From assembly GCA_964489745.1 (NCBI GenBank), contig CAZBBQ010000002.1, positions 1-30,584 of the forward strand: a stretch of 30,584 nucleotides of DNA, written 5' to 3'. Below, one piece after another: positions 2,741 through 22,000 of the stretch (its first letter is position 1; each line of letters begins with the position of its first letter). The position numbers and the translations under genes are program-made. This DNA is from an uncultured Desulfobacteraceae bacterium (GTDB lineage Bacteria; Desulfobacterota; DSM-4660; Desulfatiglandales; B25-G16). The notes under the pieces are model-generated. The model saw nothing but the letters and a program-made list of their open reading frames with translations, was not told the DNA's origin and did no database searches.

Positions 2741-2878
2741 TTTTTTCCCTTGGAGAGCGAAACATAAGGTTTTTTTGAATTTTTCTTTGAGATTGAAAGC
2801 TTTTTATTGTAAAGCCTTTGAAACGAGCAACTTTTTGCTAATTTCACGTGACATTACAAAATCACTCTATTTCTGTCA

Positions 2879-3883: not shown

Positions 3884-4045
3884 TAGGAAGACATGACAAA
3901 TTTTAAATTACTAAATGAGCATAGAAAAGTTGTGATACAAGTACCTTTTGTAGTATAACCGAGAACGATTCTAAACAGTATTATCGACAGATCAAAAAAA
4001 CTGGAGCCTGGAATAGGGCTTTTCAATTTTACGAAAGGAGATAAA

Positions 4046-5011
4046 ATGGCAATTGACGTAGCAAATGAATTGGAAGAGGTTGACAGCATTGAGGTAACTA
4101 CCCTTATAGATAACTATGTTGACGTTCTTCTGAGAAATTCCCCTGGGGTTACGCGACCTCCACTTGCAATAACAGGAACAATTCCCACTGACGCTCTCTT
4201 GGCCGAACATGGTCTCTCTCTCATGATTACAGTAAAAAAAGATGAGAAATCTCACTGTATTCTCTTTGATTGTGGATATACCAAGATTGGTGTACCCCAT
4301 AATATGGAGATTTTGGGCGTGGATCCACAGCAAATAGAGGCCATTGTCCTCAGCCACGGTCATATGGATCATACTGGTGCACTTTACCCTATTGCGAAGA
4401 GCCTGAAAAAATCTATTCCCTTGATACTCCACCCTGATGCCTTTCTTTCGCCCCGTTTCTTTGGACTCGACGATGGAAGAAGGCTCTTGTTCCCCCAAAC
4501 CCTCATAAGAAATGACATAGAGAAAAATACTTCTCTTACAATAGTTGAAAAGGAATCTCCATCGTTATGGATGGATAATATGATAGCAATAACAGGAGAA
4601 GTTGAACGGATAACAGAGTTTGAAAAAGGACTGCCGAATGCCTCTATGGAAAGGAATGGAAAGGTGGAACCAGATATAATACGTGATGATCAATCTATTG
4701 TAATAAAGGTAAAAAATAAAGGGTTAGTGATAATTTCTGGATGTGGTCATGCCGGTATTATCAATACTGTTTTTTATGCCAGAAAGATAACAGGTATTGA
4801 TAAAATTCATGCTGTTTTGGGTGGTTTTCATCTGTCAGGGCCCATTTTTGAGCCTATAATAGAAAAGACAATTATTGAGTTTAAGAAAATTAAACCTGAA
4901 GTTATTATCCCGATGCATTGTACAGGATGGAAGGCCATTAAGAGATTCTCAGATGAATTCCCTTCAACCTTCGCACTTAACAGTGTAGGAACAAGAATTA
5001 CCTTTGTGTAG
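4046..5011 (+). CDS. MBL-fold metallo-hydrolase, COG1237-like (tetrahydromethanopterin-pathway synthase-like family)
   Basis: AEHGLS, FDCG, SHGHMDHTG, DDQS, GCGHAG, GGFHL and PMHCTG motifs; AAGGAG RBS. Confidence 0.85.
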   Translation: MAIDVANELEEVDSIEVTTLIDNYVDVLLRNSPGVTRPPLAITGTIPTDALLAEHGLSLMITVKKDEKSHCILFDCGYTKIGVPHNMEILGVDPQQIEAIVLSHGHMDHTGALYPIAKSLKKSIPLILHPDAFLSPRFFGLDDGRRLLFPQTLIRNDIEKNTSLTIVEKESPSLWMDNMIAITGEVERITEFEKGLPNASMERNGKVEPDIIRDDQSIVIKVKNKGLVIISGCGHAGIINTVFYARKITGIDKIHAVLGGFHLSGPIFEPIIEKTIIEFKKIKPEVIIPMHCTGWKAIKRFSDEFPSTFALNSVGTRITFV

Positions 5012-5470: not shown

Positions 5471-5490
5471 CAGAACAAGTCAAGGCAAAG

Positions 5491-6207
5491 CTAAATTCCG
5501 AGATAGGCCTCCCGTATTTCTGAAGACCCCTTTATTTTTTCAGACGTTCCTTCGGATTTAATTTGACCCTCATGCATTATGTAGACATAATTCGATGCAT
5601 CAAGGGTAGCCTCTGCATTTTGTTCTACAAGAAGTATCGTCAATCCAACATCTGCTTGTAATTTTTCAACAGTTTCAAAAATTTCTCCGACAAGTTTAGG
5701 CGCCAATCCCTGGCTCGGCTCATCTAACATGATCAATTTCGGTTTTGTCATAAGCGCCCTGGCAATAGTTACCATCTGTTGCTGCCCTCCACTCAGTGTG
5801 ACAGCTTTTTGTCTATCTCTTTCTTTTAGGATAGGGAATAAAGAGTAAACAAGCTCAAGGGAGGCATTTATGTTTTTAATGGCCTCTTTGCGATAGGCAC
5901 CCATTAATAAATTTTCATGTACGGTCATACCCCCAAATAGATGTTTTCCCTCAGGAACCAGGGCAATACCAAGATCCACCTTTTTATGGGTTGGGAGGTG
6001 AGTTATTTCCTCATCTTCGTAGAATATTTTACCTCCCCATGGCTCAACCGAACCCAACACAGTCATGAGGAAGGTTGATTTACCCACACCATTAGGCCCG
6101 AGCAGGGCTGTTATAGAACCTTTCTTAACCGCTAAACTTGGTTTCCACAATACCTGCATGGGTCCATAGCCAGATTCAAGATTCTCGACCCTTAACATAC
6201 TATTCAT
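5491..6207 (-). CDS. livF: LIV-type ABC transporter ATP-binding protein (LivF-like)
   Basis: GPNGVGKS Walker A, LSGGQQQM signature, LDEPSQGLAP, LLVEQN. Confidence 0.93.
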   Translation of the reverse strand: MNSMLRVENLESGYGPMQVLWKPSLAVKKGSITALLGPNGVGKSTFLMTVLGSVEPWGGKIFYEDEEITHLPTHKKVDLGIALVPEGKHLFGGMTVHENLLMGAYRKEAIKNINASLELVYSLFPILKERDRQKAVTLSGGQQQMVTIARALMTKPKLIMLDEPSQGLAPKLVGEIFETVEKLQADVGLTILLVEQNAEATLDASNYVYIMHEGQIKSEGTSEKIKGSSEIREAYLGI

Positions 6208-6988
6208 CCTTATTTTTCACTTCTTTCCAAACCTCAGATCGCCATTTGGATTCGTCCTTAGAATGCCCTAAATATACCTCGATTACCCTTGGATCAGTCA
6301 AGGCCTCCTCTGTTTTGGCATCCACTAATTTTGCACCTTGATTTATTACGATTACTCTCTCGGCCAAGCCGGCTACCGCTCTCATGATGTGCTCGACCAT
6401 GGAGACTATGGCTATCTTCTCTTCGTCTTTTATCTTTTTGATAAATGTGACCATATTATCGATATCCTTGGGATTCATCCCTGCCATAGCCTCATCCATC
6501 AAAAGGAGTTTTGGTCTCATTGCGAGAGCCCTGGCAATTTCCATCAATTTTTTCTCTACAGGGGTAAGGGTCCCGGCAGCTTTATCCCTATAAGCCTCCA
6601 ATCCAACCATATCAATATACCGGTCTGCAATCTCCAGGGAGTCATCCACGGTAACTTTTTCTGCCAATGTACCAAACATGGCACCAATCGCTACATTTTC
6701 CCTGACGCTTGCCGAGCTAAAAGGCCTGGGAATCTGAAAGGTTCTCCCTAACCCAAGTGGTGCTCTTTTGAATGCAGGTAATCTGGTAATATCTTTTCCA
6801 TCAAAGATGACTTTCCCTTCTTCTGGGCGATAAACTCCGCTAATAACATTAAAAAGGGTGGTTTTCCCGCTCCCGTTTGGCCCGACTATTCCAATTAATT
6901 CGCCTTCTTTGATTTCCAGGCTTATCTTATCGACTGCCACCAAACCTCCGAAGCGTTTTGTTACGTTCTCAAGCTTCAATAATGCCAT
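6200..6988 (-). CDS. livG: LIV-type ABC transporter ATP-binding protein (LivG-like)
   Basis: FGGLVAV, GPNGSGKTT, RTFQ, LLMDE, VEHIM, VIEVYLG. Confidence 0.93.
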   Translation of the reverse strand: MALLKLENVTKRFGGLVAVDKISLEIKEGELIGIVGPNGSGKTTLFNVISGVYRPEEGKVIFDGKDITRLPAFKRAPLGLGRTFQIPRPFSSASVRENVAIGAMFGTLAEKVTVDDSLEIADRYIDMVGLEAYRDKAAGTLTPVEKKLMEIARALAMRPKLLLMDEAMAGMNPKDIDNMVTFIKKIKDEEKIAIVSMVEHIMRAVAGLAERVIVINQGAKLVDAKTEEALTDPRVIEVYLGHSKDESKWRSEVWKEVKNKDE

Positions 6989-6997
6989 GAGTATTAC

Positions 6998-7999
6998 CTA
7001 TTCGATAAACATTTCTAATTTTGTGCCCTTTAATTTACTCTTCAGCAGTCCTACAACACCCTCTGGTGCTATCACAATTATGATAATAATGATTGGCGCG
7101 AATATGAGGAGTTGAAATCCTGGCATGATGACCGCGAGCCAATATTTCGACAGCCCGTAGATAAGCCCGCCAACAACAGGACCCAGAAGTGTGCCTGCAC
7201 CACCAAGTAGAACCACCACTATGCACTCCACTGTGTAATGTATTACAAAGACATCGTCCGGGTATACATGGCCAAGCTTTAATCCCCAGGCCATAGCCCC
7301 AACACCTGCTCCAAGCCAGCCACTAGTCAAAAAAGCAATTGTTTTGTACTTGTTCGCATTTATCCCCATGACCTTAGCTGCATCCTCATCTTCCCTTACT
7401 GCAGTCAGGGCATAACCAATCTTGCTTCTCATAAAATACATATTCAAAAAGGCAGCCAATGCAGCTATAATAAAGACTGAAAAATCGGCCCAGAACGAGG
7501 TGAGCTGGTTGACTGTAGTCCTTCCCAGGGCCTGCACGAGTGCCCCGTAATATATGAGACCTTCAGAGCCACCCCAAATTTTTGCTCCTTCTATGAAGTG
7601 CCTGAGCCCCTCATTTATACCAATACAGGCTATAGCAAAATAGGCCCCCCTGAGCCTTAAGGCAATGAACGCTTCAAGAAGTGCCGATAACGACGCAAGG
7701 AACATGGCAAACAATATTCCTATACCTATAATACCTATTCCAAGCCATTCATACTGAGAAAAATATGTTATCCCTAATGACATTCCATAGGTACCTAAGG
7801 CGATAAAGGTTACGTAGCCAAAATCCACATATCCCGTCATCCCCATAAATATGTTCCAGGACTGTCCCAGGGCACAATAAAAGGCAAGCAATGCTACCAT
7901 CTGCCACATACCCGGCATAGAGAAACCGATTATAAACATGATGAGGTATGCAGCAAACACAGGAATGAGTGGATAATATTTCGGTAAGGTCTTTTTCAT
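6998..7999 (-). CDS. livM: LIV-type ABC transporter permease (LivM-like)
   Basis: SWNIFMGMTGYVDFG, LRGAYFAI, AVREDEDAAKVMGIN, LGGAGTLLGP; multiple TM segments. Confidence 0.92.
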   Translation of the reverse strand: MKKTLPKYYPLIPVFAAYLIMFIIGFSMPGMWQMVALLAFYCALGQSWNIFMGMTGYVDFGYVTFIALGTYGMSLGITYFSQYEWLGIGIIGIGILFAMFLASLSALLEAFIALRLRGAYFAIACIGINEGLRHFIEGAKIWGGSEGLIYYGALVQALGRTTVNQLTSFWADFSVFIIAALAAFLNMYFMRSKIGYALTAVREDEDAAKVMGINANKYKTIAFLTSGWLGAGVGAMAWGLKLGHVYPDDVFVIHYTVECIVVVLLGGAGTLLGPVVGGLIYGLSKYWLAVIMPGFQLLIFAPIIIIIIVIAPEGVVGLLKSKLKGTKLEMFIE

Positions 8000-8884
8000 T
8001 TACTTCCCAAGAAGTCCAGTAGGTTTTATTAAAAGGAGAAAAAACAGCATCCAAAAGGCCAGAGATACCGTCAAGGAGAACGGTGCCACTCCTGGTATCA
8101 GGGCAAACAGGGTATAGGCACCGTTCTCTATAAGGCCAAATATCAACCCTGCGAAAAAAGCGCCATACGGAGAGGTAAGCCCACCCAGAACAGCTATAAC
8201 AAAGGCCTTCAGGGTATAGACCCCACCCATGTAAGGGTTGATACCCACCGGGATAAACATTGTAAGCAAAACCCCGCTCATTACTGTTAAGCCAATCCCA
8301 ATGGCAAAGCTCAGGGCATATATCCAATCTACATTAACCCCACACACCCTTGCCCCTTCCCTATCCTCCATAACGGATCTTATTGCAGTTCCTAACCTTG
8401 TTTTACTAAACCAGAGGTATAGAAATAAGGCGATAGCTGTGCTGCCGATGAATGCATAGACTTTACTCATGGGTATAGTGGTTATAGGAAGTGTTATCTT
8501 TCCAAGACCCCAATTATAGCCTCTGAAATCAGCGCCAAAAATAAGCTTGGCAATCTCCTCCAGAAGAATGCCCATAGCAAAGGTGGCAAGAAGTGAGGTA
8601 AGCTCCGGGGCCTTTATTAATCTCCGTATCACGGTATAAAAGAAGAAAAATCCTAATGCCATTCCAATAATCAGGGCTGCTGGAAGAGCTATCACTGGAG
8701 ACAGGCCCAAGGCCGTAAACATAGTCAGCGTTACAAATGCTCCAACCATAATGAATTGACCATGCCCGACATTAACCACGTTGATAACACCGAATATGAG
8801 GCTCAATCCCATTGTAGCCAGGCCATAAACACCCCCAAGGAGCAGCCCATGAGTCAAATTTCCCGCCAGCAGTGTAAAAAACAT
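8000..8884 (-). CDS. livH: LIV-type ABC transporter permease (LivH-like)
   Basis: GLSLIFGVINVVNVGHG, TRLGTAIRS, KAFVIAVLGGL, KPTGLLG. Confidence 0.92.
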   Translation of the reverse strand: MFFTLLAGNLTHGLLLGGVYGLATMGLSLIFGVINVVNVGHGQFIMVGAFVTLTMFTALGLSPVIALPAALIIGMALGFFFFYTVIRRLIKAPELTSLLATFAMGILLEEIAKLIFGADFRGYNWGLGKITLPITTIPMSKVYAFIGSTAIALFLYLWFSKTRLGTAIRSVMEDREGARVCGVNVDWIYALSFAIGIGLTVMSGVLLTMFIPVGINPYMGGVYTLKAFVIAVLGGLTSPYGAFFAGLIFGLIENGAYTLFALIPGVAPFSLTVSLAFWMLFFLLLIKPTGLLGK

Positions 8885-8964
8885 ACCGTCCTCTTTTATG
8901 CCCTGTTAGAAAAAATCCTGCTCAAGCATTCTAACAGGTTTTGTTCTGTATAAACTTAATATAG

Positions 8965-9013
8965 AAAATCTCCTCACCTCATAGAAAACTCTTCACTAAA
9001 GGGAGGAGATTTT
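8965..9013 (-). terminator. Intercistronic stem-loop or partial terminator after the SBP gene
   Basis: AAAATCTCCTC (8965-8975) pairs with GAGGAGATTTT (9003-9013); on the minus strand the stem is followed by TTTTCT; lies 11 nt after the SBP stop. Confidence 0.65.
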
Positions 9014-9024
9014 TTATGATTCTA

Positions 9025-10275
9025 TTAGAACTTGGGTTTTGGATAGATGAATTTGGCTGTTGCTGCCTCAAGAGGCCACACAATAACCCTTTTGCCATTC
9101 TGCCACTGCATGTCTACCATGGAGTGACCTATCTGCATCCCTGTAGTATCATCAACATCCCATCCTCCATAAAAGGACATGAACTTTAATTTGCCAAGGG
9201 CTGCCCTTACTTTATCCTGGTCAATAGAATTAGCCATCTCCGCAGCTTTTACATAGGCCAAAACCTGGGCCCCTGCTTCTGCGGCATGATAGTCCGGTAT
9301 CATATCTTTGCCCAGTGCCTTTTTAAAAAGACTTACAAATTCATCTTGACTCGGGCCAATCCATTCGAGGCCGAGTTTTTTGGCTCCTTTTGGGGAAAAT
9401 GTTACGCCATATTCCCAGTGAGAGGGTCCCATTACCCCTTCTGCTATATGGCCGCCCAAGGCTTTATAGTAGGCAGGCAATGTTGCAGATGCAACCAGTG
9501 ATACGGCCTTGACGTTTATATCCAGGTCTGACATTTGTCTGGCAAACAGCTGACCATCCACGTAATGTCCACCACCAACCACTATCTCTGGTTTCCTTGA
9601 TTTCATATCTGATAGAAGGGGAGTTAGATCGGCTACACCTTTCGGGTATGTCCTCTTAAATACGACCTTGAATCCAAGTTCTTCGGCGTGCTTTTCAGCG
9701 CCACCCATGGTCATCCTGGCGAATTCTGAATCCTCATAAGCCAATGCCACGTTTTTAACGTTAGGATCAAAGTGTTTAATCATGTCAAGGGTTCCCATAT
9801 GATATTTGGATCCTGGTCCTATCGTTTGCACAATATACTGGAAGCCCTGCTTGAAAATTCGGTCGCTCGCTCCTCCGTGATCCATATAGACCATGTTATA
9901 TCTTTCAGCCACAGGAGCTCCAGAAAGAGTGAGCCCTGAACTATATGCGGAAAAAACAACGCTAACTTTATCAACCGTGATCAGCCGCTCAATAAGGCTT
10001 GTTACGCCCTCTTTTTTTGATTCACAGTCATAATATTTATAGTCAAGAGGAATCCTTTTCTTACCTACAAGCACACCAGCATATACATTATTTACCCAGT
10101 CGATACATGCCTTTATTCCCCCGATGGCCTGCTCCCCTGCCTTTGCATATTTTCCAGAAAGGCAGGCTGGGTGCCCAATTACCAACTTTTTTGGCGCTGC
10201 AAGGGCATTTGCTGAAATAAAAAACCCAACAATAGCTATAAAAATTATAGCAGTTTTAAAATAATTTCTTTTCAT
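9025..10275 (-). CDS. LivK-like periplasmic substrate-binding protein (type I PBP)
   Basis: Sec-type signal peptide (MKRNYFK..ANALAA), LSGKYA, YYDCES, YSSGLT, GGGHYVDG; AGGGGGAG RBS; heads the LIV-type operon. Ligand unknown. Confidence 0.9.
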   Translation of the reverse strand: MKRNYFKTAIIFIAIVGFFISANALAAPKKLVIGHPACLSGKYAKAGEQAIGGIKACIDWVNNVYAGVLVGKKRIPLDYKYYDCESKKEGVTSLIERLITVDKVSVVFSAYSSGLTLSGAPVAERYNMVYMDHGGASDRIFKQGFQYIVQTIGPGSKYHMGTLDMIKHFDPNVKNVALAYEDSEFARMTMGGAEKHAEELGFKVVFKRTYPKGVADLTPLLSDMKSRKPEIVVGGGHYVDGQLFARQMSDLDINVKAVSLVASATLPAYYKALGGHIAEGVMGPSHWEYGVTFSPKGAKKLGLEWIGPSQDEFVSLFKKALGKDMIPDYHAAEAGAQVLAYVKAAEMANSIDQDKVRAALGKLKFMSFYGGWDVDDTTGMQIGHSMVDMQWQNGKRVIVWPLEAATAKFIYPKPKF

Positions 10276-10337
10276 GCTACTCCCCCTTTTTAGTTTATGT
10301 TAAAGAAAATAATGTGTAGCACATAAAAAATATAAAA

Positions 10338-10370
10338 AAATCCTGTTATGTAATCTACATAACAGGATTT
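10338..10370 (-). terminator. Perfect 15-bp hairpin followed by a U-tract (intrinsic terminator-like)
   Basis: AAATCCTGTTATGTA-ATC-TACATAACAGGATTT; T-run follows on the minus strand. Confidence 0.75.
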
Positions 10371-10536
10371 CAAAAGTCCCCTCTGAAGTTGGTATTCAGA
10401 AAGACCAATAAATATTTAATTAAAGGGTGGATTGCTAATAGCATTATTCTGAACCAAAAAGGTTTGTAGAACAACACACCATTACTGCCATTACTTTTTT
10501 ATTGGCTATTTGTCAACAAATTTATCAAAAATCCTT

Positions 10537-11124
10537 TCAGAAAAAATTACTATACGTATTTGATCGTTCTGTGACTCTTTTAAGATAATCACTTGTTTCT
10601 TTCGGTGTCCGGTGCCTGAGTAATTGATAAAGTTTATCGCTTGACATAGAAGAGACATGATACCTTTGAATTATCTTTTGTCGGATAGCAGTCGGGCCCC
10701 AGTTATATCCGCATATTGTCAGGTAGAGACGTTTATCCCTTCCTTGAATATCGGCAAAATGTTTGTTGTAGAGGAGATAAAGATACGCGGAGCCAAGATT
10801 GATATTATTAACAGGCTGGTAAAGGTAGGGTGGTGTAATAATTCTATTCTGCTTATAGATAAACTGGTATGCCTCTCCCCAGAGGAGGTCTATCCTTCTT
10901 TTTAACTCTTGCAATTCACGTCTCTGCTGGTCTTCTATCTCATCCCATTGCTTTTCTATCCCCAGAACATTTTTTCGCCATGTTTCTTTAGCGGCCCTTT
11001 CTAATTTCTCCCATTCATTCAATTCTTCCCCATGTTTTTCACTATAGCCGATAGAGGAGAAAAGAAATGGATAGATAATTGCGAATATTACTAAGAAAAA
11101 AAAGCTCTTTCTGATTTTCACCAT
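10537..11124 (-). CDS. MltC-like lytic transglycosylase homolog with apparent in-frame internal deletion (SLT C-terminal half only)
   Basis: AAGGAG RBS before ATG 11124 (track start 11157 has no RBS); signal-like N-terminus, coiled coil, then EAYQFIY..YLYQPVNNINLGSAYL..YNWG..ETSDYLKRV; no ES/GLMQ catalytic motifs. Confidence 0.7.
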   Translation of the reverse strand: MVKIRKSFFFLVIFAIIYPFLFSSIGYSEKHGEELNEWEKLERAAKETWRKNVLGIEKQWDEIEDQQRRELQELKRRIDLLWGEAYQFIYKQNRIITPPYLYQPVNNINLGSAYLYLLYNKHFADIQGRDKRLYLTICGYNWGPTAIRQKIIQRYHVSSMSSDKLYQLLRHRTPKETSDYLKRVTERSNTYSNFF

Positions 11125-11150
11125 TGTCTCCTTGTTAAAAATTATGTTTA

Positions 11151-11168
11151 AATGCAATCCATTGCATT
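11151..11168. promoter_or_regulatory. Perfect palindrome AATGCAAT-CC-ATTGCATT between divergent genes (candidate operator)
   Basis: 8-bp arms, 2-nt spacer, in the 78-bp divergent gap 11125-11202. Confidence 0.4.
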
Positions 11169-11202
11169 AATGTGTTAGTAAAAAATCTTTCCAGAGGCGA
11201 TT

Positions 11203-12183
11203 ATGATGAAAAAAAACCTATTAAAAAGCAGCCTTGTAAATATAGTCATTTCAGATATTGATTTAACACCAGGTCCATTCTGCATGAGCTTTCATTTTAA
11301 CCTGGAACCACTTAAGGCGTCTATTGAAAAATATGGTGTTATAAATCCGCCATACCTGCTTAGAAATCCCGATAACAATTTTTTAGTAGTTGCCGGTTAT
11401 GCAAGGCTCATGGCTGTAATAGAATTGGGGTGGCATGATATAGCATGCCACGTGTTGCCTGATAGTTTCTCATTGTTTAATGCGCTTTTATTTAATTTAA
11501 ATGATAATCTCATTCATCGTCAATTTAATAGTATTGAAAAAGGGATGATTTTACAAAGACTCACCCGTTTCATTAGCACAGAAGAAATAGTAACCAATTT
11601 CATGCCTATTCTTGGTATTCCTTCAAACAAACAACAATTAGAATTATTTTTGGGTTTAGACGAGTTAGAAGAGAGAATAAAGATTTCTATTGCTATTGAA
11701 CAATTGTCCATACGGGTGGCTGGGTTATTGAGGCATATTGATAAAAACGATCGGCTCAAAATTAATAATCTATTTACCTCTTTAAAATGGAGCTTTAATC
11801 AGCAATGGGAAACTATTCAATGGATTAAAGAAATTGCCAGCAGGGAAGGGTGCTCAATTAACAAGATTATCAATTCAAAAGATATTAATGAGGTTTTACA
11901 TAATACGACGATGAATAAACCACAGAAGGTAAAAGCCATAGTTAGGATACTGAAATTCAGAAGATTTCCATCCCTTTCTAAGGCTGAAAAATTATTTATC
12001 AAGGGTGTTTCCAATCTTTCTCTTCCCTTAGGAGTTAAAATAATTCCCCCACCTTTTTTTGAAGGGACTGATTACAAACTCGAAGTAACGTTTAGAAAAG
12101 GTGAAGATCTTAAAGAAAAATTAGCTAATTTATGTAACGTACCTGAATTAAAACACATACCCGATTTTTGGAAGGGCATATAA
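11203..12183 (+). CDS. ParB/Srx N-terminal-domain protein
   Basis: LKASIEKYGVINP (box I-like), VVAGYARLMA (GxxR box II-like), NDNLIHRQFNSIEK (box III-like), helical middle and C-terminal extension. Confidence 0.8.
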   Translation: MMKKNLLKSSLVNIVISDIDLTPGPFCMSFHFNLEPLKASIEKYGVINPPYLLRNPDNNFLVVAGYARLMAVIELGWHDIACHVLPDSFSLFNALLFNLNDNLIHRQFNSIEKGMILQRLTRFISTEEIVTNFMPILGIPSNKQQLELFLGLDELEERIKISIAIEQLSIRVAGLLRHIDKNDRLKINNLFTSLKWSFNQQWETIQWIKEIASREGCSINKIINSKDINEVLHNTTMNKPQKVKAIVRILKFRRFPSLSKAEKLFIKGVSNLSLPLGVKIIPPPFFEGTDYKLEVTFRKGEDLKEKLANLCNVPELKHIPDFWKGI

Positions 12184-12210
12184 CATTTCGGATTGTAAAA
12201 AAGCATTTAT

Positions 12211-13314
12211 ATGGGGCCTATGAAGCGATTTAAAGTAAGGCGAATCTTGATTGAAAGAGAGGCTGAAAACGACTCTCTTTCAAAGAAGATAATTGAAAAA
12301 TTGCCAAATATACCAAGAGAACGTGTAGGATCAAATGAATTAGCCTTGTGGGAAGATATTGAAGAGATGGATAAAGACTCACTGAGGCTTATCCACTATA
12401 AAGGTGAATTTCTTAAACCCTGCCCAGGTACAAGGAGATATATCTGCTGTGGGTATCAGATCCTCAATGTAGGGATCAACTGCCCGATGGACTGTAGTTA
12501 CTGTTTTCTTCAATCCTACGTCAACCAACCATCATTAAGGCTTTTTACTAACTTAGAAGATAAACTTAATGTGATCGGTGAGTTTATCGATAACCATCCA
12601 GAAAGGATATTTAGAATTGGAACCGGAGAGTTCACCGATAGTCTTGCCCTAAATTATATTACCGGATGGACTCATTTTTTACTTCCTTTCTTTTCATCCA
12701 GAAAGAACTGTATACTGGAGCTCAAGACAAAAACCTCTTTTACCAAAGACATTATTAACAGTAGGTACAAAAAAAGAATAGTTATCGCATGGTCTTTAAA
12801 CACCTCTCGAATAATAGCCAATGAAGAGGAAAAAACAGCAAGTCTAAAAGAGAGAATCATTTCCGCACGGGAATGTCAAAAAGCAGGGTTTGTGGTAGCG
12901 TTTCATTTTGATCCCTTACTATATTATTCAGGATGGGAAAATGAATATGAAGAGATTATACAGCTTTTGGAGAGATATATTGATCCAACCTCTATTATTT
13001 GGATAAGCATTGGCTCTTTTAGATATATGCCAGATCTCAAGTGGCATATTTTGAAAAGATTCCCAGATACACATATCTTTGATGGTGAATTTATTACCGG
13101 TTTAGACGGTAAGCAGAGATATTTCAAGCCCATCAGGGTAGAAATGTATGCTAAGTTATCAGAAAGATTGAAAAAATGGTATGATAATTTGGGGATTTAT
13201 TTTTGTATGGAAAGTGATGATGTTTGGGAACAATCGCTGGGATGGTCACCAAAAAATTCTTCAAATCTTTCGAAATACCTCGACAACCGAGTAAGAATGG
13301 TAATGCCTGCTTGA
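12211..13314 (+). CDS. Spore photoproduct lyase (SplB)-like radical SAM protein
   Basis: NCPMDCSYCFLQ, LELKTK, WSLN, TASLKERI, HFDP and GWENEY match the SplB architecture. Start may be the second ATG at 12220 (GGGG upstream). Confidence 0.88.
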   Translation: MGPMKRFKVRRILIEREAENDSLSKKIIEKLPNIPRERVGSNELALWEDIEEMDKDSLRLIHYKGEFLKPCPGTRRYICCGYQILNVGINCPMDCSYCFLQSYVNQPSLRLFTNLEDKLNVIGEFIDNHPERIFRIGTGEFTDSLALNYITGWTHFLLPFFSSRKNCILELKTKTSFTKDIINSRYKKRIVIAWSLNTSRIIANEEEKTASLKERIISARECQKAGFVVAFHFDPLLYYSGWENEYEEIIQLLERYIDPTSIIWISIGSFRYMPDLKWHILKRFPDTHIFDGEFITGLDGKQRYFKPIRVEMYAKLSERLKKWYDNLGIYFCMESDDVWEQSLGWSPKNSSNLSKYLDNRVRMVMPA

Positions 13315-13443
13315 AAAATGACGAAAGTAAAGGGAAAGTGATCCTTGTTATCTATTTTTTAATGTGTTAGAAAAAAACGATTTAATCTAAAAGGTTGCGC
13401 ATTCCTTTTAATAAACTATTATGTATTACTTAATTAAATACGG

Positions 13444-13473
13444 TATGTTACGAGAAAATGATAATGTAACATA
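13444..13473. promoter_or_regulatory. Inverted repeat TATGTTAC-N14-GTAACATA upstream of hbd (candidate operator)
   Basis: Perfect 8-bp arms 37 nt upstream of the ATG; overlaps a TG-A-TAATGT extended -10-like element. Confidence 0.4.
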
Positions 13474-13510
13474 TTAACAATTAACTCAAAGTTATTCCAA
13501 AGGAGGAGTT

Positions 13511-14362
13511 ATGGAAATAAAAAAAATTGGTGTTGTTGGTGCAGGAACAATGGGCAATGGTATCGCTCAGACAGCAGCCCAGATCGGCTGTGATGTTGTC
13601 ATGAGAGACATAGAAATGAGATTTGTGGAAGGGGGAATGAAAAGCATCGAGAGGTTTCTTTTAAAAAGTGTTGAAAAAGGGAAAATGGATACCAAACAAA
13701 AAGACACCATTTTTGGCCGAATAAAAGGCACAACTGACATGGTTGACCTTCAAGATGTTGATTTTGTCGTAGAAGCCGTTATAGAAGATTTAGATCTAAA
13801 AAAGAGTGTTTTTAGTCAGTTAGATGAATTATGTAAACCCGATGTTATTTTGGCTACCAATACATCATCTATGTCAATTACAGAAATAGCAGCAAGTACG
13901 AAACGGCCTGATAAAGTTTGTGGAATGCATTTTTTTAATCCTGTGCCATTAATGCGTCTTGTGGAAATAATCAGAGGCTATTCAACAAGTGACGAAACGA
14001 TAAAAGCGACAACAGAATTAGCTCAGAAAATGGGTAAAACAACTGTAGAAGTAAAAAAGGACTCACCAGGTTTTATCGTTAATAGAATAATGATTCCCCA
14101 TATGATAGAGGCCATAAAGATTGTTGAGGAAGGCATTGCATCCATTGAGGACGTTGATAAGGCAGTGAAAAATGGTCTTAATTATCCTATGGGTCCATTT
14201 GAATTAATGGATCTGACAGGAATTGATATCGCATACTTTGTAACGCAATATTTCTTTAATGAGTTGAACAAAGAAAACAAATGGGTCGCACCAAATTTAT
14301 TAAAAACAATGGTGAGAGCCGGTAAATTAGGTAAAAAAACTAAGAGTGGATGGTATGAATAA
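13511..14362 (+). CDS. hbd: 3-hydroxybutyryl-CoA dehydrogenase
   Basis: GVVGAGTMGNGIA Rossmann motif, VEAVIE, ATNTSS, GMHFFNPVP, GFIVNR, PMGPFELMDLTGID, GKKTKSGWY; AGGAGGAG RBS. Confidence 0.95.
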   Translation: MEIKKIGVVGAGTMGNGIAQTAAQIGCDVVMRDIEMRFVEGGMKSIERFLLKSVEKGKMDTKQKDTIFGRIKGTTDMVDLQDVDFVVEAVIEDLDLKKSVFSQLDELCKPDVILATNTSSMSITEIAASTKRPDKVCGMHFFNPVPLMRLVEIIRGYSTSDETIKATTELAQKMGKTTVEVKKDSPGFIVNRIMIPHMIEAIKIVEEGIASIEDVDKAVKNGLNYPMGPFELMDLTGIDIAYFVTQYFFNELNKENKWVAPNLLKTMVRAGKLGKKTKSGWYE

Positions 14363-14385
14363 AGACTTATAAAATATGCGCACAA

Positions 14386-14425
14386 AAAGGGAGACTTTGT
14401 TTTAAATCAAGTCTCCCTTTATTTT
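14386..14425 (+). terminator. Intrinsic terminator after hbd (possibly bidirectional)
   Basis: AAAGGGAGACTT (14386-14397) pairs with AAGTCTCCCTTT (14409-14420), followed by ATTTTATT; A-run on the 5' side. Confidence 0.8.
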
Positions 14426-14660
14426 ATTCAAAAAAATGAAAGACTAACGCTTATTTTTATGACGCATAGATTTCAATAACTTCCGGTATTTATGTTTCCT
14501 TATCTTTTTTCTTCTTTTTTTAACTACACTGCTCATAAAAATGAAAACCTCCAAAAATTTAAAATGTTTATAATAATGGTAAATAGGGATGTAACAATTT
14601 ACTCTATACAAGTAAGTTTACATAATATATATTATCAGACACACTATTTATATAAAAACA

Positions 14661-15509
14661 TTACGCATTGTTCTTTGATTCATAAAGATATTTGTCTGCT
14701 AACGAAATAAAATCACTTACAGTCATTTTATCTGAATATGTTGCAAAACCCACACTTGCGGTAACACCATCTCCCTCTTCAAATCCTTTTATAAGTCTTT
14801 CACTTGTATTGAGAACAATTTCTTTATTTGCCTCAACGAGGATAATTGCAAACTCATCACCACCATACCGAAAAGCCGTGTCTACGTTTTCCCTGATGTT
14901 TGAAAGAATTATATTACCGGATTTAGCAAGCATTTTATCACCTGCAAGATGACCATATGTATCGTTATACTCTTTGAATTTATCAAGATCCAAAAGGATC
15001 AGAGATAAGGGATGGTTCTGGCGGTTTGCCCTGTTCACCTCATCTTTTAGTTTATTATGAAAATGTCTTTGATTAAAAAGCCCGGTGAGGTTATCAGTTA
15101 TTGATAATTTGGCTAATTCATCTCTAATCCTTTTTTCTATCAATATCCTGCTTATCTTTGCCTCTATTTCATCAAGTTTAAAGGGCTTGGTGATAAAATC
15201 ATTTGCGCCAGCATTAATAACATCCATATACGCATAGTCTTTATCGTAACCAGTCATAGCAATTATACTGATATCAATTTTTTCTTCCCTCACCGTCTTT
15301 ATTAATTCAATTCCATTAAATTCTGGCATATTGACATCAGTAATTAAAAAGGTATATTTTCCATTTTTTATTCTCTGCAATGCACTTTTTCCACTATTTT
15401 CTGAATCAACATTAAACCCTAAACTTGACAGTAATTCTGCTACAACATTCCTTACATCTATCTCATCATCAACAACCAGAAGGTTTTCTTTATGATATTC
15501 CTGTTCCAT
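14661..15509 (-). CDS. Response regulator-diguanylate cyclase (REC-GGDEF)
   Basis: LVVDDE, ITDVNMP (phospho-Asp), TKPF; TDNLTGLFN, DLDKFKEYNDTYGHLAGD, RYGGDEF. Confidence 0.93.
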   Translation of the reverse strand: MEQEYHKENLLVVDDEIDVRNVVAELLSSLGFNVDSENSGKSALQRIKNGKYTFLITDVNMPEFNGIELIKTVREEKIDISIIAMTGYDKDYAYMDVINAGANDFITKPFKLDEIEAKISRILIEKRIRDELAKLSITDNLTGLFNQRHFHNKLKDEVNRANRQNHPLSLILLDLDKFKEYNDTYGHLAGDKMLAKSGNIILSNIRENVDTAFRYGGDEFAIILVEANKEIVLNTSERLIKGFEEGDGVTASVGFATYSDKMTVSDFISLADKYLYESKNNA

Positions 15510-15520
15510 AATTACATACT

Positions 15521-16861
15521 CTAATATACCTTCTGATTATATTTGTCAACTAACTCTCCAAGTAATGAATTTTGGAATCCTTTAATAATCTTTACCCTCA
15601 CCAATTGCCCTTTAAAATCTTTTTTAGCAAAAAAATTGACAACCTTATTTCCTGACGTTCTTCCTGTGAGCTGACTGTTCCCTTTTTTTCCAGGGCCTTC
15701 TACTAAAATTTCTTGAATTGTTCCCTCCATTAGTGTGTTTTTTGATAAGGTTATTTTTCTTTGCTTTTCCTGTAATATAGACAGGCGTCTTTGCTTTTCT
15801 TTTTCATCTAATTTTCCCGGAAACTGTAATGCCTTGGTTTTGGGCCTTTCAGAATATTTAAAGGAGAAAAGATTATCAAACGCTATTGTATCTATTAATT
15901 GCAGGCTCTCTTCAAAATCCTTTTCAGTTTCACCTGGGAATCCCACAATTAAATCGCTTGTAATTGTTATATCAGGTCTTACGTTTCTTATGCGCTCTAT
16001 TAAAGATATATATTTATCTCGTGTGTATCGTCTATTCATAAGCTTAAGTATAGTATCTGAGCCTGATTGAACTGGTAGGTGAATATGAGCACAAAGGCTC
16101 TTTAATTCTCCAAAAGAACCTATGAGTTCATCGGATAGATCTTTCGGATGAGATGTTATGAAGCGAAGTCTTTTCAAACCCGCTATACCATCCAACTCCT
16201 TTAGTAAACCAGGAAATGTTGGCAAGGCCTTGTTTTTGTTATTGTAGGAGTTTACATTTTGTCCTATAAGGGTGATTTCCTGTATCCCTTGACTGATCAA
16301 ATATTTAGACGTATTAATAATGTCTTCTGCTGGAAGGCTTGTCTCCCTTCCCCTCACAAAAGGAACAATACAATAAGAACAAAAATTATCACATCCCTCC
16401 ATGATTTTTAAAAAAGTTGTAACCCTTCCTTTTACGTAGCCGTTACATGCGGGTAATGCGGACAGTTCGCCGGTTAAATCAAGGCAGGAGGTCTTCCCTC
16501 TTCCTTCCTTGATTTGAGCAAGAAAATCATTGATGCGGTAAATATTTCTTGGGCCCAAAACCAAGTCAACATATGGGAAATCTTGTAGGAGATTTGTTCC
16601 TTTTTCTTGTGCGACACATCCGATGATGCCAGAAATAATATCTGGCTTCTTCCTTTTTAAAGAAGCCAGGCGACCAATAAGGGTTAATGCCTTTTGTTCA
16701 GCCTTTTGTCTGACCGTACAGGTGTTTACCAAGATAATATGAGCATCATTGATGCTATCTGTTTTTTTATAACCCTTATTTACAAGGATTTGGCTGATAG
16801 TATCAGAATCATGCACATTCATCTGACACCCAAAGGTTTTTATATAGAATAATTGATCCAC
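15521..16861 (-). CDS. miaB: tRNA-2-methylthio-N6-dimethylallyladenosine synthase MiaB
   Basis: TFGCQMNVHDS, NTCTVR, GCVAQ, GCDNFCSYCIVP, HLPVQSGS, DLIVGFPGET, C-terminal TRAM domain; GTG start. Confidence 0.97.
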   Translation of the reverse strand: MDQLFYIKTFGCQMNVHDSDTISQILVNKGYKKTDSINDAHIILVNTCTVRQKAEQKALTLIGRLASLKRKKPDIISGIIGCVAQEKGTNLLQDFPYVDLVLGPRNIYRINDFLAQIKEGRGKTSCLDLTGELSALPACNGYVKGRVTTFLKIMEGCDNFCSYCIVPFVRGRETSLPAEDIINTSKYLISQGIQEITLIGQNVNSYNNKNKALPTFPGLLKELDGIAGLKRLRFITSHPKDLSDELIGSFGELKSLCAHIHLPVQSGSDTILKLMNRRYTRDKYISLIERIRNVRPDITITSDLIVGFPGETEKDFEESLQLIDTIAFDNLFSFKYSERPKTKALQFPGKLDEKEKQRRLSILQEKQRKITLSKNTLMEGTIQEILVEGPGKKGNSQLTGRTSGNKVVNFFAKKDFKGQLVRVKIIKGFQNSLLGELVDKYNQKVY

Positions 16862-16897
16862 ATGGCACCTTCCTACGGTCGAGAAAATTTTATCGTA

Positions 16898-17125
16898 TCA
16901 ATACAATTTTTCTTGATTAACATGGATACTTCCCTCTTCTTGTAAAGATTTAATAAGTGAAACTATATCATCCTTACACCCGGGCATTATAGAGATTTCA
17001 ATCTCACCATTTACTGGGTTAATAGTTCTCATAGATGCCATGCCATCGTAGGATTCTATTATCCATTGCAAATAACATATTTCCTTTCTATCTATAGACA
17101 AAAGATATTTACCGGTTTGTCTCAT
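16898..17125 (-). CDS. Small DUF4911-like protein
   Basis: ICYLQWIIESYDGMASMRT..G.I.I..MPG pattern; overlaps the nadK stop; sits directly before miaB. Confidence 0.7.
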   Translation of the reverse strand: MRQTGKYLLSIDRKEICYLQWIIESYDGMASMRTINPVNGEIEISIMPGCKDDIVSLIKSLQEEGSIHVNQEKLY

Positions 17126-17996
17126 TGTAAGATGATTCGCCCCATTTCAGTTTTGTTCTTAAAATATCAAAATAGTCCTGACCAGGCGATTTAATGAGTT
17201 TAAGTTTATTTTTTGATTGAGAGACAACAACCCTGTCATTATTTATAAGATCGAAGCCGACCTGGCCATCAAATGTGAGTGTGACTTGCTCGCTGTTTTC
17301 TCCCATTTCTATCTCTATCACTGATTTATCGGGCAGTATAATAGGCCTATGTGTCAATGTAAATGGGCATATTGGAGTCAATATCAATGCATCTAAATCC
17401 GGGTAGATTATCGGGCCTCCAGCGGAAAGATTATAACCTGTTGAGCCCGTAGGAGTAGATATTATCAACCCATCTGCTCGAAAGGTTGTTAAAAAACGAT
17501 CATCAATAGATACCCTAAGATCAATAATTCTGGCTAATGCGCCTTTATTAATAACCACGTCATTTAAGACCGAAAAACGACATTTTTCTTCGTTATTTCT
17601 TAAAATGCTAGCCTGCAACATGAGTCTTGTTTCAACAGCTATCTCTCCAGTTATAAGTTTTTCTATATCCTCATAAAGCCTTTTTAACGGAATCTCTGTT
17701 AAAAAACCTAATCCCCCAAGATTGATACCCAAAATAGGCAGACCATATCGTCCAATCTTTCTGGCAGCCCCCAGTAATGTTCCATCTCCACCCAATACAA
17801 TAACCCAGTCGGCTGTATCTGGTATAATTGTTTCTTCCTCAAGATATCGATTTAAGGCTGGGCTCGATGTCATTTCTTCTGTGTATACCTTTATTCCCTT
17901 TTCTTTAAACCAATGCGTTAAGCGTTGACACTCTCTTTTTGCAGGCTCAAAATCGTGCTTAAAGATTATCCCGACTGATTTAGGTTTTTTTTCCAT
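17109..17996 (-). CDS. nadK: NAD(+) kinase
   Basis: GGDGTLL, GINLGGLGFL, NDVVI, DGLIISTPTGSTGYNLSAGGP, DGQ; ATG 17996 overlaps the upstream TAA (TAATG). Confidence 0.96.
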   Translation of the reverse strand: MEKKPKSVGIIFKHDFEPAKRECQRLTHWFKEKGIKVYTEEMTSSPALNRYLEEETIIPDTADWVIVLGGDGTLLGAARKIGRYGLPILGINLGGLGFLTEIPLKRLYEDIEKLITGEIAVETRLMLQASILRNNEEKCRFSVLNDVVINKGALARIIDLRVSIDDRFLTTFRADGLIISTPTGSTGYNLSAGGPIIYPDLDALILTPICPFTLTHRPIILPDKSVIEIEMGENSEQVTLTFDGQVGFDLINNDRVVVSQSKNKLKLIKSPGQDYFDILRTKLKWGESSYNETNR

Positions 17997-18598
17997 TAGC
18001 AAATTACCTTACCAATTACTCTCCAATCATCAATCAAATCCGATGTCGTATCAACTAGAAGATGTAAAATATGTAGAGAAGGATATAGCCTTTTCAGATC
18101 CTCCAAGTCAACTGGCTGGAACTTTTTTTTATTATTTATATAGGCCTGAATAGTTAAGGCATTTGACTCATAATTTTCCTTTGTTCTCTTCGATATCCTT
18201 TTAAAGGAAATTTCCTGGGGGCATTGTGTCTGCTGAATAACAAAAAGTTTATTGTGTCTTGCGGCAACTTCGGCGGCCCTCCTTCTTAACTCTTGGGTAA
18301 TAAAGGTTGCATCCAGAATGATTCCTTTACCCTTAGCCACAAGCTCATCTGCAAGAGAAAATATTTCATTGTAGACAAGCTCCCTTTTTTTCATATCGGA
18401 TGCAATCTTCTCGTCAAATATGTCTTCATTTTTCAGCACTTCAAGTCTTATCAGATCCGTCCTTAGTATCGTATAACCTTTAATTTTGGCTATAACTTCT
18501 GTGGTTTCCGTTTTGTAGGAGGCAGGAAGTCCACATGCAATCACCACTGCTTCAGGTTGCAATCCCTTTTTTATGAAATCTACAAAATGTTCCTTCAT
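17996..18598 (-). CDS. AAA_33/COG0645-like P-loop kinase-fold protein with a deviant Walker A
   Basis: CGLPASYKT, LRTDLIR, YNEIF, GIILDATF, RISKR; own AAGGGA RBS. Confidence 0.8.
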   Translation of the reverse strand: MKEHFVDFIKKGLQPEAVVIACGLPASYKTETTEVIAKIKGYTILRTDLIRLEVLKNEDIFDEKIASDMKKRELVYNEIFSLADELVAKGKGIILDATFITQELRRRAAEVAARHNKLFVIQQTQCPQEISFKRISKRTKENYESNALTIQAYINNKKKFQPVDLEDLKRLYPSLHILHLLVDTTSDLIDDWRVIGKVIC

Positions 18599-18605
18599 GA
18601 TTCCC

Positions 18606-19604
18606 TTACTTTATATAGGTCATGGCAAGTTTAAAATACTTATTTGATGTTTCCTGAGCTTCTTCTTTTTTCCTCCTCGCTATATTTGCATCATCGAGCT
18701 GGAAACTGTTTACCTTCCCCCGTACAATTGCCCGATAGATCTTATAAAATGTAAGCAAGGAATTCACATCGTGCTCATTTGCTATTTCCTTGTATAAATC
18801 CCAAAGTTTTTCAGAAAGCCTGTTTCCTCCATAATATTCCAAATCCATAAGCAGGAAAGCAATGTCAGCTATGGTATCAGTATATCTAAATCTGCTGTTA
18901 AATTCAATGCAATCAAATATTGGAAGATTTTCTGTAAGGCAAATATGCTCCATATGGAGATCTCCATGACAATCTCTTATCTTTTTACTATTTATTCGGC
19001 TGATGAAAAGGGGCCTGTTCGAGCTATAAAAATTTTCTGTCCATTGTTTGAGGGTGTCAAAATCCCTTTTTTGAATTGTCATTCCAATATATTTCTGGAT
19101 CTGTTCAAAATTTTCATCGGTATTAATTTTGAATTTTTCTGGCTCACCAAATTTATCAATATTCAAGGAATTACGAGCAGTTCGATGAAATCCTGCAAGA
19201 ACTTTGGCAATTTTTGTTAAATGCTCGCTCGTTAATTCACCTCGAAAAAACATTGATTTCATGAGCATTTCATCGGGAAGCCTTTTCATTCTAACTGCAT
19301 ATTCAACAATCCTTCCCTGCTCTCCCCCCATTCTGTAATTTTTACCGTCATAGCGTACTGGTAATACATCTATATATATGTCCTTTGATAATCTTCGGTT
19401 AAGCATAATCTCTTGATGACAGTAGTAGTGCCGTTTTTTTAGTGTTGAAAAATCCAAGAATCCAAAATTGACAGGTTTTTTTATCTTATATACAGACTCA
19501 TCTGTAAGAAAAACAAGTGAGATGTGAGTCTGAATTAATAAGACCTCTTTTGCTTTATCTGAAAGAAATTCTGGGTTCAAAAGATCATCAATCATAGAAG
19601 ACAT
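18606..19604 (-). CDS. Aminoglycoside-phosphotransferase-like kinase-fold protein (COG2187-like)
   Basis: IQTHISLVFL, YKIKKPVNFGFLDFSTL, EIMLNRRL, EYAVRMKRL, DCHGDLH, FDCIEFN, YKIYRA.VRGKV; GAGGA RBS before ATG 19604. Confidence 0.88.
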   Translation of the reverse strand: MSSMIDDLLNPEFLSDKAKEVLLIQTHISLVFLTDESVYKIKKPVNFGFLDFSTLKKRHYYCHQEIMLNRRLSKDIYIDVLPVRYDGKNYRMGGEQGRIVEYAVRMKRLPDEMLMKSMFFRGELTSEHLTKIAKVLAGFHRTARNSLNIDKFGEPEKFKINTDENFEQIQKYIGMTIQKRDFDTLKQWTENFYSSNRPLFISRINSKKIRDCHGDLHMEHICLTENLPIFDCIEFNSRFRYTDTIADIAFLLMDLEYYGGNRLSEKLWDLYKEIANEHDVNSLLTFYKIYRAIVRGKVNSFQLDDANIARRKKEEAQETSNKYFKLAMTYIK

Positions 19605-19684
19605 GAGCAATCCTCACTAAAAAGGGAATTTATGGATTAAGGGATTAAGGCACTTCTTTTCATTCGATCACTAATTATGCACGC

Positions 19685-19713
19685 ATATTAAAAACCTAAT
19701 ACACACCAGTCAA
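19685..19713 (-). promoter_or_regulatory. Sigma70-type promoter for the APH-like to miaB run
   Basis: TTGACT-17 nt-TAATAT on the minus strand. Confidence 0.6.
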
Positions 19714-19734
19714 GGATAAAATTGGTAAACTGTG

Positions 19735-19763
19735 TTGACTTTATGATTAATCTAATCTAATTT
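19735..19763 (+). promoter_or_regulatory. Sigma70-type promoter for the PNP-deaminase operon
   Basis: TTGACT-17 nt-TAATTT, 27 nt upstream of ATG 19790. Confidence 0.5.
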
Positions 19764-19789
19764 TTTAAGGAATTATGGGAGGCATTGAT

Positions 19790-21930: not shown

Positions 21931-22000
21931 GGAATTTAGGAATTGTGAATTTAGCAACGATAACTTTAGGCACTATAGCTCACTTTAGGCACTTTAGTCG
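21923..22000 (+). repeat. Degenerate 8-10 bp tandem repeats (GGAATTTA-like, then ACTTTAGGC-like)
   Basis: gggattga ggaattta ggaattgt gaattta; then actttaggc (21963), actatagctc, actttaggc (21982), actttagtc (21991). Confidence 0.6.

Follow-up and report, generated by a model that had tools for sequence, protein, structure and literature searches.

A ParB-like protein, a spore photoproduct lyase-like radical SAM enzyme and a glycosyltransferase retained together in Desulfobacterota

The two genes and their products

The stretch of DNA analysed here, called the window, comprises 30,584 nucleotides (nt) of contig CAZBBQ010000002.1 from an uncultured Desulfobacteraceae bacterium (assembly GCA_964489745.1, positions 1 to 30,584 of the forward strand). 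Its nearest named genomes are Desulfatiglandales metagenome-assembled genomes (MAGs), and the sequencing runs containing it come from salt-lake and marine sediments; no RNA run is listed for the locus. Two genes of the window, adjacent and in the same orientation, are the subject of this work. They code for a ParB-like protein and for a radical S-adenosylmethionine (SAM) enzyme of the spore photoproduct lyase (SPL) family. Both open reading frames (ORFs), singled out in the original prediction as co-oriented and 27 nt apart, are present as listed:

11203 to 12183, plus strand: gene of the ParB-like protein (ORF, 326 amino acids), an orphan paralogue separate from the canonical parAB of the genome
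12211 to 13314, plus strand: gene of the SPL-family radical SAM enzyme (ORF, 367 amino acids as listed; start probably at the ATG at 12220)

Since homologues of the SPL-like enzyme are 363-364 amino acids long and have their N-terminus at residue 4 of the window protein, the ATG at 12220 is probably the true start codon; the intergenic gap would then be 36 nt. No parA, sporulation or mobile-element gene was found among the window ORFs of at least 120 amino acids that were scanned (244-801 was left out), which agrees with what had been predicted for parA and sporulation genes. The canonical parA-parB operon of this genome is located on another contig (C193).

The following segments were distinguished in the ParB-like protein:

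11203 to 11526, plus strand: N-terminal domain of ParB/Srx nucleotide-binding type (residues 1-108)
11395 to 11406, plus strand: G65-Y-A-R68, box II-like motif
11503 to 11520, plus strand: D101-N102-x3-R106, box III-like motif
11527 to 11826, plus strand: helical domain, by hhalign homologous to the helix-turn-helix (HTH) DNA-binding domain of ParB (approximately residues 109-208)
11827 to 12180, plus strand: family-specific C-terminal half (approximately residues 209-326) with the PPxFEG motif and with P256 and E287 as invariant residues
12046 to 12066, plus strand: PPPFFEG, PPxFEG in the family (residues 282-288)

Domain models of canonical ParB proteins score below their cut-offs on this protein: 18.2 bits for Pfam ParB_N (PF02195, cut-off 26.3) and 23.6 for TIGR00180 (cut-off 58.45). 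The NCBIfam Noc model gives 30.6 bits over residues 33-236, and neither HTH_ParB (PF17762) nor ParB_C (PF23552) is matched in the Pfam/NCBIfam scan. Using hhalign, the profile of the family was compared with the canonical ParB of the same genome. The two align with 98.3% probability over residues 12-208, and the helical domain pairs over its whole length with residues 120-219 of the canonical protein, i.e. with HTH_ParB. Judging from these alignments, the N-terminal and HTH domains of the ParB-like protein share ancestry with those of canonical ParB. The Q-P-R of canonical box I is lost in the same comparison. Motifs of box II type (GxxR) and box III type ((D/E)N...R) are present.

Structural comparisons lead to the same group of proteins. 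In the AlphaFold2 (AF2) model (pLDDT 95.9), the best match of the N-terminal domain is the ParB-like CTP-binding domain of PadC (Z 13.7, root-mean-square deviation (rmsd) 2.4 Å, 99 residues). Foldseek retrieves ParB, Noc and KorB at E of about 1e-8; in its alignments with AlphaFold-modelled canonical ParB and Noc most of the length is covered, with low TM values of 0.30-0.44. Further matches are ParB-N of pNOB8 (Z 12.7 over 207 residues) and Spo0J (Z 9.4), followed by the weaker ones SbnI, a serine kinase and Srx.

Relatives of the ParB-like protein are numerous. About 1,700 cluster representatives were obtained at E<=1e-10 from 1.8 billion searched, and most of the 150 relatives listed are about 320 amino acids long and matched over their full length. 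In an alignment of 72 family members, G65, R68, E112 (just beyond the end of the N-terminal domain), P256 and E287 are invariant, and N102, R106 and N109 nearly so. The motifs G65-Y-A-R68, D101-N102 and PPPFFEG had all been described correctly for the window protein. GYAR, regarded originally as a deviation from ParB, is a peculiarity of this protein and not of its family: of the 72 members, 50 have R at position 67, 13 have K and only 2 have A. The window protein is thus an outlier in a family whose consensus keeps G-x-R-R.

The most basic region comprises residues 109-255, with a median isoelectric point (pI) of 8.7 in the family and 9.8 in the window protein. The C-terminal half gives no ParB_C alignment in hhalign and no Pfam match. 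It is conserved family-wide, and profile matches that span it distinguish true members from canonical ParBs. In summary of this comparison, the protein shares with canonical ParB/Spo0J, Noc, KorB and PadC the homology in the N-terminal and HTH domains, GxxR and (D/E)N...R. In contrast to canonical ParB, it is devoid of parA, box I and ParB_C, and has instead a family-specific C-terminal half of 118 residues. A published survey of ParB CTPases used Pfam gathering thresholds and mentions neither radical SAM nor photoproduct lyase (PMC12704722); the window protein falls below the threshold used there.

In the second gene, the following segments are of interest:

12421 to 12504, plus strand: active-site segment with C71, insert, radical SAM motif, Y97 and F99
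12421 to 12423, plus strand: invariant C71, aligned by MAFFT with the Clostridium donor Cys
12445 to 12450, plus strand: C79-C80 of a family-specific six-residue insert absent from SplB
12481 to 12504, plus strand: radical SAM motif C91-x3-C95-x2-C98
12628 to 12630, plus strand: invariant Glu140, where Bacillus has the hydrogen-atom donor Cys141 (HMMER alignment to 4rh0 and MAFFT column)
12904 to 12915, plus strand: invariant H232-F233-D234-P235, with D234 at the SPL Ala whose backbone contacts SAM
13087 to 13125, plus strand: predicted beta-hairpin, residues 293-305 (model strands 294-296 and 302-304), with invariant E293, D299, K301 and R303
13198 to 13311, plus strand: last core strand with invariant Y330, C332, M333 and E334, and acidic C-terminal extension (residues 335-367)

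The product matches Pfam SPL (PF20903) with 92.5 bits (cut-off 27) and the SplB equivalog model TIGR04070 with 113.5 bits, against a cut-off of 400. Its AF2 model (pLDDT 89.8) was superimposed with VIA-align on SP lyase of Geobacillus thermodenitrificans (4fhf), which gave Z 34.7, with 320 of 338 residues aligned at rmsd 2.2 Å; the remaining radical SAM enzymes reach Z 14 or less. The structural alignment stops at residue 333 of the model, and the extension of 33 residues that follows has a median pI of 5.0. A profile search with the N-terminal 107 residues against the PDB returned chance matches only.

To specify the relationship to SplB (G. thermodenitrificans structures 4FHC-4FHG, 4K9R and 4RH0; PMC3467042), the enzyme was aligned with annotated splB products of C. 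botulinum and B. velezensis plasmids. Residue roles were taken from the cited work, and conservation was assessed in 25 SPL-like sequences from across the phylum. Both groups have in common PF20903, the CxxxCxxC motif and the full-length fold, at 21-23% identity. The cluster cysteines and the equivalent of Tyr96 are kept. Also retained are K174 and S195, the counterparts of Lys174 and Ser195, which bind SAM in SP lyase, and R271, the counterpart of its phosphate-binding Arg273. Like SplB, the SPL-like enzyme is preceded by a dedicated partner gene, although this partner is the ParB-like protein of 326 amino acids and not SplA.

On the contrary, several positions of the active site differ from SplB, and the score lies below the equivalog cut-off. 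The Glu found at Cys141 is invariant in all 25 sequences. Tyr99 of Bacillus is replaced by Phe in the window and by Phe, Ile or Ala across the family, and Ala235 by invariant Asp234; the backbone of SPL Ala234 contacts SAM (PMC3467042). His232 is invariant as well. Additional cysteines are present in the six-residue insert (Cys79-Cys80) and at Cys332; Cys80 and Cys332 are invariant. In SPL, a beta-hairpin bears Arg304 and Tyr305, and Lys309 binds phosphate besides Arg273. The hairpin predicted here may be its counterpart, but MAFFT puts Arg304 and Tyr305 at R309 and V310. The relay residues of SPL nevertheless do not all appear to be lost, as invariant Cys71 falls by MAFFT into the column of the Clostridium-type hydrogen donor (Ser77 in Bacillus, Ser76 in Geobacillus), a region that HMMER leaves unaligned. 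Further differences are the C-terminal extension, the non-sporulating hosts (Desulfatiglandales and other Desulfobacterota) and a tie to a glycosyltransferase, described below. The SPL-like enzyme is therefore a full-fold relative of SPL with a remodelled active site, and not SplB.

Co-occurrence of the genes and a third component

We wondered if the two genes are kept together in other bacteria. Their distribution was determined in an even set of 401 genomes of the phylum Desulfobacterota, where the overlap of the lists was counted by hand. The ParB-like gene was found in 240 genomes and the SPL-like gene in 252, with near-identical profiles family by family. Both are present in 234 genomes and neither in 143. 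The ParB-like gene occurs alone in six genomes, four of them with borderline E-values and one (G072) cut by a contig end. The SPL-like gene occurs alone in 18, nine of these with weak scores. When the nine genomes with strong scores were searched with a profile made of 72 members, a ParB-like gene of the family type, matched also in its specific C-terminal half, was recovered in seven. In one genome classified as SPL-only by the single-sequence search (G113), the gene found in this way directly adjoins the SPL gene.

The two genes are also linked physically, with the ParB-like gene first. This is the case for all 76 Desulfatiglandales loci with enough upstream DNA, for 13 of 13 genomes of the same order, and for about 78 of the approximately 112 phylum genomes with both places listed (hand count). 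In other lineages the genes are unlinked and both are still present. For example, in G383, where 1.1 Mb separate the two, the ParB-like gene follows purC and the SPL gene adjoins genes of multihaem cytochromes; such neighbours in unlinked genomes were read as local synteny. Flanking genes of the pair differ between loci. Identity drops with taxonomic distance, from 63% in the same family to about 53% in the same order and about 40-47% in the phylum as a whole, the pattern that vertical inheritance would produce. Taken together, pairing of the ParB-like and SPL-like genes is not due to chance. Lack of conserved linkage had been named as one observation that would refute the predicted system, and the linkage is very strongly conserved.

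Plasmid and phage collections contained only true splB or distant SPL-family genes, and none from the SPL-like clade. A search for anti-phage defence genes (PADLOC) gave no match for the SPL-like enzyme, and for the ParB-like protein only 14.8 bits to a Type II methyltransferase model.

Several unusual arrangements were traced to other causes. The recurrence of the pair on contig C6 is not due to duplication: this contig is 99.88% identical to window positions 5473-22521 (20 mismatches and no gaps in 17,049 nt) and represents a strain-variant contig within the MAG. An apparent ParB-SPL fusion of 636 amino acids (L092) is an artefact, its join being a run of N read as X, and a truncated SPL gene behind the ParB-like gene in L001 reflects an assembly gap. 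Long frames around the SPL gene in L089, L090 and L091 were read as spurious upstream extensions; their extra N-terminal stretch has no Pfam match, and the one in L090 shares sequence with the ParB-like ORF, read in a different frame. As to other phyla, ESM Atlas cluster labels suggest that the genes may also be present in Spirochaetota, Verrucomicrobiota and Fidelibacterota.

In two genomes (G033 and G151), a gene coding for a family 2 glycosyltransferase (GT2) immediately precedes the ParB-like gene. The GT2 proteins of these genomes share 58% identity, and an orthologue exists in the genome of the window:

G000:C79:5960-6700: GT2 orthologue truncated at the contig end (53% identity, E 8e-85)

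GT2 orthologues were detected at E<=1e-45 in 228 of the 401 genomes. Their profile at the level of families is near that of the pair, and the first 30 family tallies match those of the SPL-like gene except in three families. All three genes are present in 216 genomes (hand count). GT2 with only one partner was recorded in 11 genomes by the single-sequence search, seven of which gain a ParB-like gene of the family type by profile, and GT2 alone in a single genome. At least 31 listed genomes have the order GT2, ParB-like, SPL-like. In Desulfatiglandales, GT2 is unlinked to the pair, which is why it escaped the original prediction, the window belonging to this order. GT2 reaches no NCBIfam equivalog and displays generic GT-A similarity only.

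The pair and a dedicated GT2 thus constitute a three-gene set kept in over half of the sampled Desulfobacterota. The idea of an undescribed two-gene system holds insofar as the linkage is conserved and no description was found, and has to be amended insofar as the pair is not self-contained: GT2 co-occurs with it almost one to one.

Two observations on the GT2 gene may be added. In G151, GT2 and the ParB-like gene lie in one stop-free frame of 610 amino acids (L093 770-2602, contig C195), which may be a fusion or a read-through of overlapping genes. In the genome of the window, GT2 on contig C79 is preceded by an ORF of about 495 amino acids (locus L116 1-1497); as judged by eye, it consists of a soluble-looking N-terminal half and a C-terminal half resembling a multi-pass membrane domain.

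Possible function of the module

The module probably acts on DNA. As a tentative explanation, we propose a chromosomal module of three genes that serves for DNA-directed modification, in which the genes of the ParB-like protein and the SPL-like enzyme form the linked core and GT2 is the third member. DNA is favoured as substrate because the partner of the enzyme is a ParB homologue with an HTH domain, because the only close structural relative of the enzyme flips a thymine dimer out of DNA, and because the enzyme retains the phosphate-binding Arg of SP lyase. Modification is preferred because a dedicated GT2 fits a scheme of functionalisation followed by glycosylation and is hard to place in repair by a lyase. 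Judged from gene content, the GT2 link favours modification of a DNA base over repair of a lesion.

Gene content, folds and residue conservation are observed. Beyond these, we infer that DNA is the substrate, that the proteins are physically coupled, that a nucleotide acts as switch, and that radical chemistry is followed by addition of a sugar; these steps might be connected as follows. The ParB-like protein would bind duplex DNA via its ParB-type HTH, with the N-terminal nucleotide pocket as switch or clamp gate. Its C-terminal half, or the C-terminal extension of the enzyme, may couple it to the SPL-like enzyme, and this coupling would give the enzyme access to a pyrimidine flipped out of double-stranded DNA (dsDNA). 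The enzyme would then cleave SAM reductively and, like SP lyase, attack a position of thymine type by radical chemistry. Owing to the remodelled active site (Glu140, His232/Asp234 and extra cysteines), the outcome could be a functionalised base and not a repaired one. Finally, GT2 would attach a sugar to the functionalised base.

ParB-dependent thymine dioxygenases of phages (5mYOX) appear to be the closest published analogue. These enzymes need a ParB-like activator specifically on dsDNA and carry an essential C-terminal extension (PMC13229309). In both cases a ParB-like protein with nucleotide-binding and C-terminal domains is the partner of a putative or proven pyrimidine enzyme, the association being known here from the genes, and an extension is present at the C-terminus of the dependent enzyme. 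Moreover, some genes of the 5mYOX cassettes have been implicated in DNA hypermodification (PMC13229309). The two systems differ in that 5mYOX is an oxygen-dependent Fe(II)/2-oxoglutarate dioxygenase in phage context, whereas the enzyme studied here is a radical SAM protein encoded on a housekeeping chromosome. A full-text search of the literature found no paper on these bacteria that connects ParB with a radical SAM partner, be it of the SPL family or another. What is new in this module is the radical SAM enzyme and the housekeeping chromosomal setting, as ParB-fold partners of DNA-modifying enzymes are already emerging. The original suggestion that a clamp or nucleotide-switch protein serves a DNA-directed radical enzyme is compatible with the folds, with the pocket residues and with the precedent of PMC13229309; its emphasis on lesions is shifted, since modification is favoured over repair.

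Several points weigh against DNA modification by the module. We know of no glycosylated base reported from DNA of cultured Desulfobacterota. A radical SAM route to a glycosylatable group needs an electron acceptor, and the extra cysteines are only candidates for a second cluster. Box I of ParB is lost and the box III Arg is displaced by one residue; by hhalign, the HTH is much diverged from that of canonical ParB, so that DNA binding is not assured. The generic GT-A similarity of GT2 gives no pointer to the acceptor. The pair is found without a GT2 match at E<=1e-45 in 18 genomes, including a divergent lineage and several incomplete genomes. Also, the published ParB-dependent dioxygenases stayed functional after mutations of the nucleotide pocket (PMC13229309).

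The genes could instead serve for lesion repair, which we consider unlikely. The SPL-like enzyme would be a lyase for an SP-like methylene-bridged pyrimidine cross-link or a radical-induced tandem lesion in the vegetative DNA of anaerobes, the ParB-like clamp would scan DNA and present the lesion, and the link to GT2 would be due to another cause. The complete SP-lyase architecture (Z 34.7) is in agreement with this, as are conserved K174, S195 and R271, the housekeeping, single-copy and vertically inherited distribution, and the origin of the organism from salt-lake and marine sediments. With invariant Cys71 at the Clostridium-type donor position, the logic of hydrogen abstraction, scission and hydrogen return could even be intact; this placement, however, comes from MAFFT only, in the region unaligned by HMMER. 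The near one-to-one association with GT2, including GT2-first operons in many lineages, has no place in a lyase scheme. Tyr99 is lost, invariant Glu, His and Asp are present in the active site, TIGR04070 is matched with 113 bits against the cut-off of 400, and the hosts are mostly strict anaerobes of dark sediments.

Another possibility, likewise of low probability, is a substrate other than DNA. The three proteins would produce or alter some other glycosylated molecule (an RNA nucleoside, a metabolite, a lipid or a protein), and the ParB-like protein would be a nucleotide-dependent enzyme of Srx/SerK type or a scaffold and not a DNA clamp. The ParB/Srx fold does include kinases and sulfiredoxin, and SbnI, serine kinase and Srx are among the weaker structural matches. 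This would also suit the strongly diverged HTH, the missing box I, the departure of the SPL-like active site from SPL, and a GT2 that only generically resembles glycosyltransferases of polysaccharides and cofactors. On the other hand, homology to canonical ParB spans the entire HTH domain, and the best folds are the DNA-binding ParB, Noc, KorB and pNOB8 ParB, not kinases. By far the closest relative of the enzyme is a DNA enzyme whose phosphate-binding Arg is kept, and no conserved lipid, polysaccharide or RiPP (ribosomally synthesised and post-translationally modified peptide) neighbours were seen at the loci inspected.

One further feature of the locus has to be considered with respect to regulation:

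11151 to 11168, no strand assigned: perfect 8+2+8 palindrome, a candidate operator or loading site, 35-52 nt 5' of the start codon of the ParB-like gene

This 18-bp palindrome occurs once in the genome, the duplicate contig aside. It is retained only in the closest relative (L004), and the upstream regions of about 85 other loci showed no enrichment of a comparable palindrome. The palindrome is thus lineage-specific, and its interpretation as a conserved ParB site was rejected, as it is not kept beyond the closest relative.

It is very unlikely that the ParB-like protein is only a repressor of the enzyme gene in the style of KorB, DndB or SplA, with no catalytic role: Bacillus splB is indeed preceded by the small regulator gene splA, KorB and DndB are regulators of the ParB family and a genome-unique palindrome lies just upstream of the operon, but its limited conservation, the almost exceptionless co-retention of unlinked genes, the invariant residues of the nucleotide pocket and the large conserved family-specific C-terminal half all speak against this.

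If the preferred reading, DNA modification, is carried further, the three genes might provide anaerobes with an oxygen-independent radical-SAM route to a sugar-decorated chromosomal base, with a ParB-type nucleotide-gated clamp as loader. We regard this full version as quite unlikely. It would be a bacterial counterpart of the pathways combining JBP/TET with a glycosyltransferase. The base J pathway of kinetoplastids consists of the JBP thymine hydroxylase and a glucosyltransferase, and is oxygen-dependent and eukaryotic. Under modification of DNA by our module, the logic would be the same (thymine is functionalised and then receives a sugar) with unrelated enzymes, a likeness derived from gene content.

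Should DNA be the target of the module, a large share of anaerobic bacteria, among them sulfate and metal reducers of environmental importance, would possess an unnoticed pathway of DNA modification or repair. SP-lyase-type radical chemistry would extend beyond spores, and the newly recognised ParB-fold partners of DNA-modifying enzymes would gain a cellular housekeeping example. The differences from SplB (Glu140, His232/Asp234 and extra cysteines) represent a defined target for enzymology, and the near-obligate link to GT2 makes the modification hypothesis directly testable by nucleoside mass spectrometry.

Flanking repeat and neighbouring genes

Neighbours of the pair that were scanned in the window are housekeeping genes, among others those of a branched-chain ABC transporter, 3-hydroxyacyl-CoA dehydrogenase, a GGDEF response regulator, MiaB, NAD kinase and guanylate kinase. 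Three places in the window deserve a short description:

798 to 1871, plus strand: ORF of 357 amino acids that overlaps the stop codon of the upstream gene 244-801 and has no Pfam match at E<=1e-5
1904 to 5011: unassigned radical SAM protein (2879-3883) between two genes of metallo-beta-lactamase fold (1904-2740 and 4046-5011)
10537 to 11157, minus strand: divergently transcribed gene of a protein of 206 amino acids that matches only a C-terminal portion of the SLT/MltC lytic transglycosylase domain (positions 57-110 of 117 of Pfam SLT)

In the last of these, the N-terminal portion of the domain, which is the catalytic one, appears to be missing.

Besides the palindrome, a direct repeat of 19 nt (18 of 19 identical) was noticed at 11167-11185 and 13359-13377, where it brackets the two-gene operon. 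One copy is located upstream of the ParB-like gene, sharing two bases with the palindrome, and the other upstream of hbd. Elsewhere in the genome, the repeat is found only on the duplicate contig. In relatives, the downstream copy alone is recognisable and resembles a promoter -10 region there.

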